Assembly: GCF_003334255.1 (NCBI RefSeq)
Contig: NZ_QOWU01000179.1
Direction: 5' to 3' (one strand)
DNA length: 978 nucleotides
From: Escherichia coli
Lineage (GTDB): Bacteria > Pseudomonadota > Gammaproteobacteria > Enterobacterales > Enterobacteriaceae
This document shows, piece by piece, positions 1-230 of this stretch. The position numbers and the translations under genes were made by a program. The stretch's first letter is position 1, and the number at the start of each line of letters is the position of its first letter. The notes beneath the pieces were generated by a model. That model saw nothing but the letters and a program-made list of their open reading frames with translations, did no database searches and had not been told where the DNA came from.

Positions 1-230
1 TCTGCGTTGCGCAGGCAGGATCTGGCCTCCACGGATTGTCCGGCCCACCATACAGCGGTGGCTGCATTGACGGTTCCGCCGTTGCGTTCTGAATCCACCG
101 GGTCGATGAATTTCTCAAACTGCTTGCCCAGCTTTCCGGTGAACGGGTCGAAAAACACCGCCCCAATCGCGAATATGGCTGCGTCCGGTCCGTTACCCAG
201 TGTTTCGGTGTCAATCATGAGATGGTTCAT
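1..230 (-). CDS. DnaQ-like (DEDD) 3'-5' exonuclease, N-terminal 76 codons only; gene continues beyond window position 1
   Basis: Minus-strand ATG at 228-230, open to the window edge. Translation begins MNHLMIDTETLGNGPDAAIFAIGAVFFDPFTGKLGKQFEKFIDPVDSERNGGTVNAATAVWWAGQSVEARSCLRNA. Residues 6-12 (IDTETLG) fit the Exo I motif of DEDD exonucleases (acidic D and E two residues apart, then a Gly, close to the N-terminus), followed by a hydrophobic beta-strand-like stretch (AAIFAIGAVFF). A GGGG Shine-Dalgarno (complement of 239-242) lies 8 nt upstream of the ATG. The ATG overlaps the upstream stop by one base (TAATG). Family assignment is from motif recognition only, not a search. Confidence 0.6.
   Translation of the reverse strand, partial: MNHLMIDTETLGNGPDAAIFAIGAVFFDPFTGKLGKQFEKFIDPVDSERNGGTVNAATAVWWAGQSVEARSCLRNA

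Follow-up and report, generated by a model that had tools for sequence, protein, structure and literature searches.

Gene start of the exonuclease and upstream open reading frames

The window, by which we mean the whole stretch of 978 nucleotides of Escherichia coli DNA that was analyzed, contains the 5′ end of an exonuclease gene. Its first 76 codons (MNHLMIDTETLGNGPDAAIFAIGAVFFDPFTGKLGKQFEKFIDPVDSERNGGTVNAATAVWWAGQSVEARSCLRNA; window 230..1, minus strand) include no stop codon, and the reading frame remains open past position 1. The encoded protein starts with MNHLMIDTETLG, in which D7 and E9 represent the Exo I pair (minus-strand translation of the window). The initial annotation had located this pair in IDTETLG at residues 6–12, close to the initiator methionine, without giving the strand; the translation bears out the position and places the gene on the minus strand. 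The features at the gene start are as follows:

1..230, minus strand: 5′ end of the exonuclease gene, the first 76 codons of a predicted DEDDh 3′-5′ exonuclease of 193 amino acids (PF16473, DexA/EcD-like)
195..215, minus strand: Exo I motif IDTETLG (residues 6–12), with D7 at 212..210 and E9 at 206..204, pairing with D7/E9 of DexA
228..230, minus strand: ATG start codon of Met1, the start in the RefSeq annotation; base 230 is shared with the TAA stop codon of the upstream ORF (232..230)
216..218, minus strand: in-frame ATG of Met5, an alternative start used in some annotations and in the published EcD expression construct
239..245, minus strand: GAAGGGG, Shine–Dalgarno-like as read from the sequence, 8 nt upstream of the ATG at 230
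230..460, minus strand: 76-amino-acid ORF (phrog_22206), a conserved upstream neighbor of the exonuclease, predicted to be translationally coupled to it

The ATG at position 230 is well supported as the start codon of the exonuclease, because it overlaps the TAA of the upstream 76-amino-acid ORF (TAATG), is preceded by GAAGGGG, coincides with the RefSeq start, and is conserved in the relatives from Klebsiella and Raoultella. These relatives retain the MNHL codons along with an overlap of stop and start (ATGA in Klebsiella, TAATG in Raoultella); their proteins are only 33%–48% identical to the E. coli exonuclease. GAAGGGG could be taken for a Shine–Dalgarno-like element of the exonuclease gene, and the overlap of stop and start codon suggests translational coupling of the exonuclease with the 76-amino-acid ORF. 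Other starts have been annotated as well. The 189-amino-acid versions among the cluster members (P0077, P0096, and P0100) begin at Met5 (ATG 218), and another annotated version begins at a GTG three codons upstream of Met1, which results in a protein of 196 amino acids. Whichever start is taken (Met1, Met5, or GTG), the Exo I aspartate is found 3–10 residues from the N-terminus. The 76-residue fragment alone matched PF16473 (Rv2179c-like; Pfam) with E = 3.2e-25 at model positions 1–72 of 177; judged at this level, the Exo I motif is not a chance match.

In each of the three loci compared, the exonuclease is immediately preceded by an ORF of 73–76 amino acids, which either abuts or overlaps the exonuclease start (E. 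coli; L003:5768-5992 in Klebsiella; L004:5780-6001 in Raoultella). The orthologues of the E. coli, Klebsiella, and Raoultella loci share 23 invariant positions, including ARKxERAH and PEE..SSIE. A Pfam search with the 76-amino-acid ORF gave nothing significant, and the match to AbiEi obtained with PADLOC was insignificant and not counted as evidence for defense. The 76-amino-acid protein may be a partner or a regulator of the exonuclease.

The remaining part of the window is occupied by further ORFs on the minus strand. A DUF4754 family protein (WP_000568659.1, phrog_2549) is represented by its C-terminal part (window 796-978); its gene is a conserved neighbor within this early block in all three genera (E. 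coli, Klebsiella, and Raoultella). Its stop codon overlaps the ATG of a 41-amino-acid ORF (window 674-799; MSIFLSWVILIISVLMAIGIMRIIYTLKDIELFFTGDKRRK; WP_000021704.1), which is arranged in tandem with an unannotated ORF of 31 amino acids (window 566-661; MKNVKAILTIATVWVIFQVSALIWLALKIWE). Both small ORFs are hydrophobic and look like single-pass membrane peptides as far as their sequences tell; neither had a match in PHROG or PADLOC. The 105-nt gap between the 31- and the 76-amino-acid ORF contains a hairpin on the minus strand (AAGGCA-TTCA-TGCCTT, window 495-510) with a T-run approximately 14 nt beyond it. No terminator was called in this gap upstream of the 76-amino-acid ORF, its folding energy was no better than that of shuffled sequence (z = 0.06), and Rfam yielded no match at E ≤ 1, on account of which an RNA element or terminator at this site was dropped. 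The promoter search ahead of the exonuclease within the window, including the 105-nt gap, revealed promoter-like matches at chance level.

Full-length gene, family assignment, and fold

Among 5,426 complete E. coli genomes, 31 contained a match to the window; all of these matches were chromosomal, the best with an identity of 99.7%. A megablast search against 50,697 phage records gave no match to the window, and the nearest sequenced phage found by protein search encodes a protein only 47% identical to the exonuclease. The whole gene was read from an E. coli locus that is 99.7% identical to the window (L001, NZ_CP116067.1). There, it extends over L001:12749-13330 and encodes a single-domain protein of 193 amino acids, annotated as 3′-5′ exonuclease (WP_016236094.1). 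The full-length protein matched PF16473 with E = 2.7e-51 and a score of 174.2 (residues 2–183, model positions 1–177 of 177) and was assigned to phrog_255 ("exonuclease," E = 9.4e-60) in PHROGs. The NCBIfam search of the exonuclease retrieved no family. PADLOC gave no specific match, but solely a weak one to a generic Cas-associated DEDDh model (E = 2.8e-5), which was not counted as evidence for defense.

The alignment with T2/T4 DexA revealed the remaining catalytic motifs. Exo II is represented by D114 in GASFDFPIL, which corresponds to D119 of DexA, and Exo III by H166-x4-D171 in AHTALGDAVYQ, corresponding to H186/D191 of DexA (the "h" and not the "y" variant). All five DEDDh residues are kept in 24 out of 30 homologues. 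D7 is invariant in all 30, E9 is present in all but six degenerate paralogues, and the first aspartate is located at residue 3–13 in 29 of the 30 sequences. The AlphaFold model of the exonuclease, built with the 30 homologues, reached a pLDDT of 89.2. When this model was compared to the PDB using Foldseek, DexA ranked at the top (8KEN/8KEL; E = 2.8e-11, TM 0.77), followed by RNase T, Cap18, DnaQ domains, and ExoI; the Foldseek probability was 1.00 for each of these, corresponding to the RNase H-like alpha/beta fold. DexA was also found in PDB sequence searches, both with the single sequence (phmmer, 2.2e-12) and with a profile (4e-22).

The window gene thus very probably encodes a 193-amino-acid single-domain DEDDh 3′-5′ exonuclease of the DexA/Rv2179c-like family (PF16473), located in the early region of a P2-like prophage. 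Since all DEDDh residues are present, i.e., Exo I, Exo II, and Exo III together with the predicted fold, the protein is, by sequence and model, a predicted complete enzyme of the DEDDh subgroup. As in other members of the family, D7, E9, D114, and D171 would hold two divalent metal ions, H166 would act as the general base, and nucleotides would be removed singly from a free 3′ end by two-metal-ion hydrolysis.

A free-standing nuclease had been proposed in the initial annotation, and the full-length locus confirms this: the ORF ends after 193 codons, PF16473 covers the protein from end to end, and the next gene is an ORF of 75 amino acids and not a polymerase. With the full gene at hand, Exo II (D114), Exo III (H166/D171), and the total length of 193 amino acids could be added to the Exo I motif, and the profile search assigned the N-terminus to the DEDDh family PF16473 and to no unrelated family. 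The argument originally put forward, namely that an N-terminal D-x-E marks stand-alone enzymes, is not diagnostic, because the polymerase-fused proofreader of T7 DNA polymerase carries the same pair (D5 and E7 in MIVSDIEAN). The N-terminal D-x-E alone cannot separate stand-alone from polymerase-fused exonucleases, and the 76 residues in the window taken by themselves would be compatible with the proofreading domain of a larger polymerase fusion. The stop codon after 193 codons, followed by the 75-amino-acid ORF and Dam, rules out such a fusion with near certainty. The homologues, too, are mostly about 180–196 amino acids long and, apart from one of 306 amino acids, lie between 163 and 211. The further statement that few functions have been characterized for phage-borne members of this fold is outdated, considering that T4 DexA (8KEL/8KEN) has long been known and EcD was characterized in 2025.

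DexA (exonuclease A) of T4/T2 is the closest relative of known structure. It belongs to the same family, has the same fold, and carries D7/E9 at exactly the same place near the N-terminus; in the exonuclease, D114/H166/D171 and W136 correspond to D119/H186/D191 and W152 of DexA. Sequence identity between the two proteins is only about 23%–28%, and the exonuclease is 34 residues shorter (193 vs. 227 amino acids), lacking the extra loops and the C-terminal tail of DexA. The two enzymes also differ in their carriers, which are a lytic T-even phage in the case of DexA and a temperate P2-like prophage in the case of the exonuclease. In the alignment, the tetramer-forming D90 of DexA is replaced by alanine (A82), which matches the "dimer-only" variant. 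By analogy to DexA, a dimer is likely, in which W136 of the partner subunit would line the active site. Of the 24 homologues with intact catalytic residues, 17 have tryptophan at the position of W152. DexA W152 stacks on 5hmC, and D169 was proposed as the residue that reads the hydroxymethyl group (PMC12153337). The position of D169 falls opposite an alignment gap in the exonuclease and has no clear counterpart, and the nearest acidic residue, E149, is a lysine in the close E. coli variant P0005; both call for caution in extending the 5hmC reading to the exonuclease.

Other relatives are more distant. Rv2179c of Mycobacterium tuberculosis, the founder of PF16473, is an exoribonuclease encoded on a bacterial chromosome, as indicated by the title of the corresponding report (Abendroth et al., J Biol Chem 2014). 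Rv2179c and the exonuclease are both stand-alone DEDDh proteins, and the latter fits the PF16473 model over its full length. Neither the PDB sequence matches listed for the exonuclease nor its 50 best fold matches included a chain of Rv2179c, because of which we regard Rv2179c as a more remote relative than DexA. The RNase H-like DEDDh fold (Foldseek E between 1e-8 and 1e-6) and the catalytic residues are also shared by the generic DEDDh exonucleases RNase T, DnaQ (Pol III epsilon), and Cap18, which appeared in the profile search as well, but are only 13%–20% identical to the exonuclease and have other partners and biological roles. Homologues are present in 1,605 phage records, many of them T4-like with the match annotated as dexA or exonuclease A.

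Prophage context and synteny

The L001 locus is a P2-like prophage integrated beside chpSB/ppa in E. coli. It starts with the genes for the integrase, a C-like HTH repressor, and Cox, followed by an ORF on the opposite strand, a 64-amino-acid ORF, DUF4761, and DUF4754. The 41- and 76-amino-acid ORFs, the exonuclease, the 75-amino-acid ORF, and the Dam methylase come next, and small ORFs, the gpA replication endonuclease, a block with an SSB gene, portal, terminase, and scaffold complete the order. The succession of Cox, DUF4761/DUF4754, two small ORFs, exonuclease, (ParE-like), Dam, and gpA recurs in prophages of Klebsiella (L003) and Raoultella (L004). Therefore, the exonuclease belongs to the syntenic genes that one P2-like lineage carries in its early region on the side of Cox and is not variable cargo, which agrees with its context in other phages (see mEp235 below). 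In P2, the region from Cox to gpA forms the early operon, which is repressed by C in lysogens. The position of the exonuclease in this region suggests expression with the lytic programme.

Several neighboring genes deserve mention. Between Cox and the remaining early block of L001, a 145-amino-acid ORF (phrog_2266, L001:10931-11368) is encoded on the opposite strand; it is absent from Klebsiella L003 and may be an inserted moron interrupting the early transcript. Directly downstream of the exonuclease, the 75-amino-acid ORF (phrog_1525, L001:13340-13567) is followed by the gene for a Dam-type methyltransferase (13564-14544). The Raoultella counterpart of the 75-amino-acid ORF matched the Pfam family ParE_like (PF24732), and the linkage of exonuclease and Dam is kept in all three genera examined. 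The long "exonuclease" profile phrog_20376 matches the Dam C-terminus as well as the exonuclease, hinting at Dam–exonuclease fusions, with the caveat that the length of a PHROG profile can reflect gappy alignments.

In Klebsiella and Raoultella, degenerate paralogues of the exonuclease (P0037, P0040, P0042, P0043, P0044, and P0046; L004:6001-6558) occupy its syntenic slot between the small partner ORF and ParE-like/Dam. They retain D7 and D171, while E9 is replaced by I or R, D114 by K or V, and H166 by R or T. Judged by these substitutions, the copies look catalytically dead yet retained, which hints at an additional non-catalytic role. In Escherichia phage mEp235, the homologue (L005:3501-4049, 38.5% identical) is part of a lambdoid PL recombination module with the order Erf, SSB, exonuclease, and anti-RecBCD (Abc2). 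Elsewhere among temperate phages, the family may thus have a role linked to recombination.

Correspondence to EcD and possible natural roles

Kang et al. (Nucleic Acids Res 2025; PMC12153337) solved structures of DexA and then characterized an "uncharacterized E. coli exonuclease" termed EcD (HAK9828821.1; "HREX"). They reported a metal-dependent 3′-5′ exonuclease activity for EcD, which was inactive on unmodified dsDNA and active on 5hmC-containing DNA and T4 genomic DNA. Plasmid-borne EcD protected against T4 upon leaky or induced expression from a pET vector, and in a simulation by the same authors, glc-hmC DNA was not retained in the active site (PMC12153337). EcD was treated as a bacterial gene and expressed as a tagged protein from Met5; the word "prophage" does not occur in the main text of the article (PMC12153337).

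The protein encoded in the window is almost certainly EcD itself or a variant at least 90% identical to it, as indicated by the primers, the residue numbering, and the cluster membership. The gene-specific part of primer EcD_F, ATGATTGACACCGAAAC (17 nt), is identical to window 218..202, beginning at Met5, with 0 chance matches expected. The gene part of EcD_R, read as its reverse complement, corresponds to the final codons of the gene in L001 (...PFLNI-stop), save one extra base in the primer as printed in Table S1. A82, which pairs with D90 of DexA, becomes A78 when counted from Met5, the same number as Ala78 of EcD in the article, and Table S3 of the latter, on bacterial homologues, includes WP_116835681.1, a member of the 90% cluster of the exonuclease, as well as members of the sister clusters (PMC12153337). 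EcD has the same five catalytic residues and the same tryptophan as the window protein. Because the two were compared via primers, numbering, and clusters, a few substitutions between them are possible. The published construct is tagged and starts at Met5, whereas the window gene starts at Met1 and resides in the early region of a P2-like prophage. In addition to the extra base in EcD_R, the legend of Fig. 5 gives "E12" as a catalytic residue of DexA, residue 12 of which is glycine, the Exo I glutamate being E9 (PMC12153337); both deviations are probably typographical.

The family, the fold, the catalytic motifs, and the RefSeq annotation were thus already established, and apparently the same protein was characterized in 2025, so that the locus carries little weight for enzyme discovery. 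Mildly new are the prophage early-region context, the conserved small partner, and the degenerate paralogues. What the analysis adds is this context: the gene of an exonuclease presented as a bacterial anti-T4 defense lies on the repressor side of a P2-like prophage, in an early region that is syntenic across genera, and it may be asked at what time the enzyme is made and whether "defense" is what it naturally serves. If the exonuclease is made from the phage early operon along with its 76-amino-acid partner, its natural role would therefore be a phage function, either an attack on hmC-modified competitor phage DNA or the processing of DNA ends in lytic growth; it would not be a host housekeeping or host-encoded defense function. 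As a tentative interpretation, held with less than even confidence, we propose that EcD, published as a "bacterial defense" exonuclease, is a core early-region gene of a P2-like lineage, coupled to the 76-amino-acid protein and with a ParE-like ORF and Dam among its linked genes. It would then truly serve the lytic programme of the phage itself, e.g., in end processing or in an attack on competitor phage DNA after induction, and might be controlled by the partner.

Two other readings are about equally plausible and neither is favored beyond a tentative level. In one of them, the exonuclease would be made in uninduced lysogens and would degrade incoming 5hmC-containing T-even DNA from its 3′ ends, leaving intact the DNA of host and prophage, which is unmodified. 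Genes for the exclusion of T-even phages, e.g., tin, are known from P2 prophages, and A82 at the position of the tetramer-forming D90 is the residue of the "dimer-only" variant. The substrate range of EcD and the T4 resistance conferred by the plasmid-borne gene are in line with a function in the lysogen, but substrate and protection data come from a single paper, with protection known from the pET plasmid only (PMC12153337). A further caution is that T4 DNA contains glucosylated hmC, the form not retained in the active site in the simulation (PMC12153337). The genomic data argue against such a defense role: the gene lies on the Cox strand within the syntenic Cox–gpA block of E. coli, Klebsiella, and Raoultella and not in a variable cargo island, this region is the repressor-controlled early operon in P2, no convincing promoter precedes the exonuclease in the window, PADLOC detected nothing beyond the weak generic DEDDh model, and catalytically dead copies are retained at the same position. 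In the other reading, the exonuclease would be an accessory of DNA metabolism during lytic growth that trims 3′ ends or degrades ssDNA in replication or recombination, and the effect on T4 would be a by-product of overexpression. This possibility draws on the location of the gene in the early region together with Dam, upstream of gpA and with an SSB gene further downstream, on the recombination module around the mEp235 homologue, and on the large number of phage records carrying a homologue. The DNA of P2-like phages is not hmC-modified, and the reported inactivity of EcD on unmodified dsDNA (PMC12153337) speaks against such an accessory function as far as dsDNA is concerned.

Compared with these readings, it is improbable that the protein is an exoribonuclease similar to Rv2179c of M. 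tuberculosis, with RNA or short oligoribonucleotides as substrates. The Pfam family bears the name "3′-5′ exoribonuclease Rv2179c-like," many NCBI records accordingly say exoribonuclease, and RNase T is the second-best structural neighbor. Against this, sequence and structure alike identify a deoxyribonuclease, DexA, as the closest relative, and EcD degrades DNA in vitro (PMC12153337). Even the similarity to RNase T does not point exclusively to RNA, as RNase T also acts on DNA and the matched PDB entries are DNA complexes.
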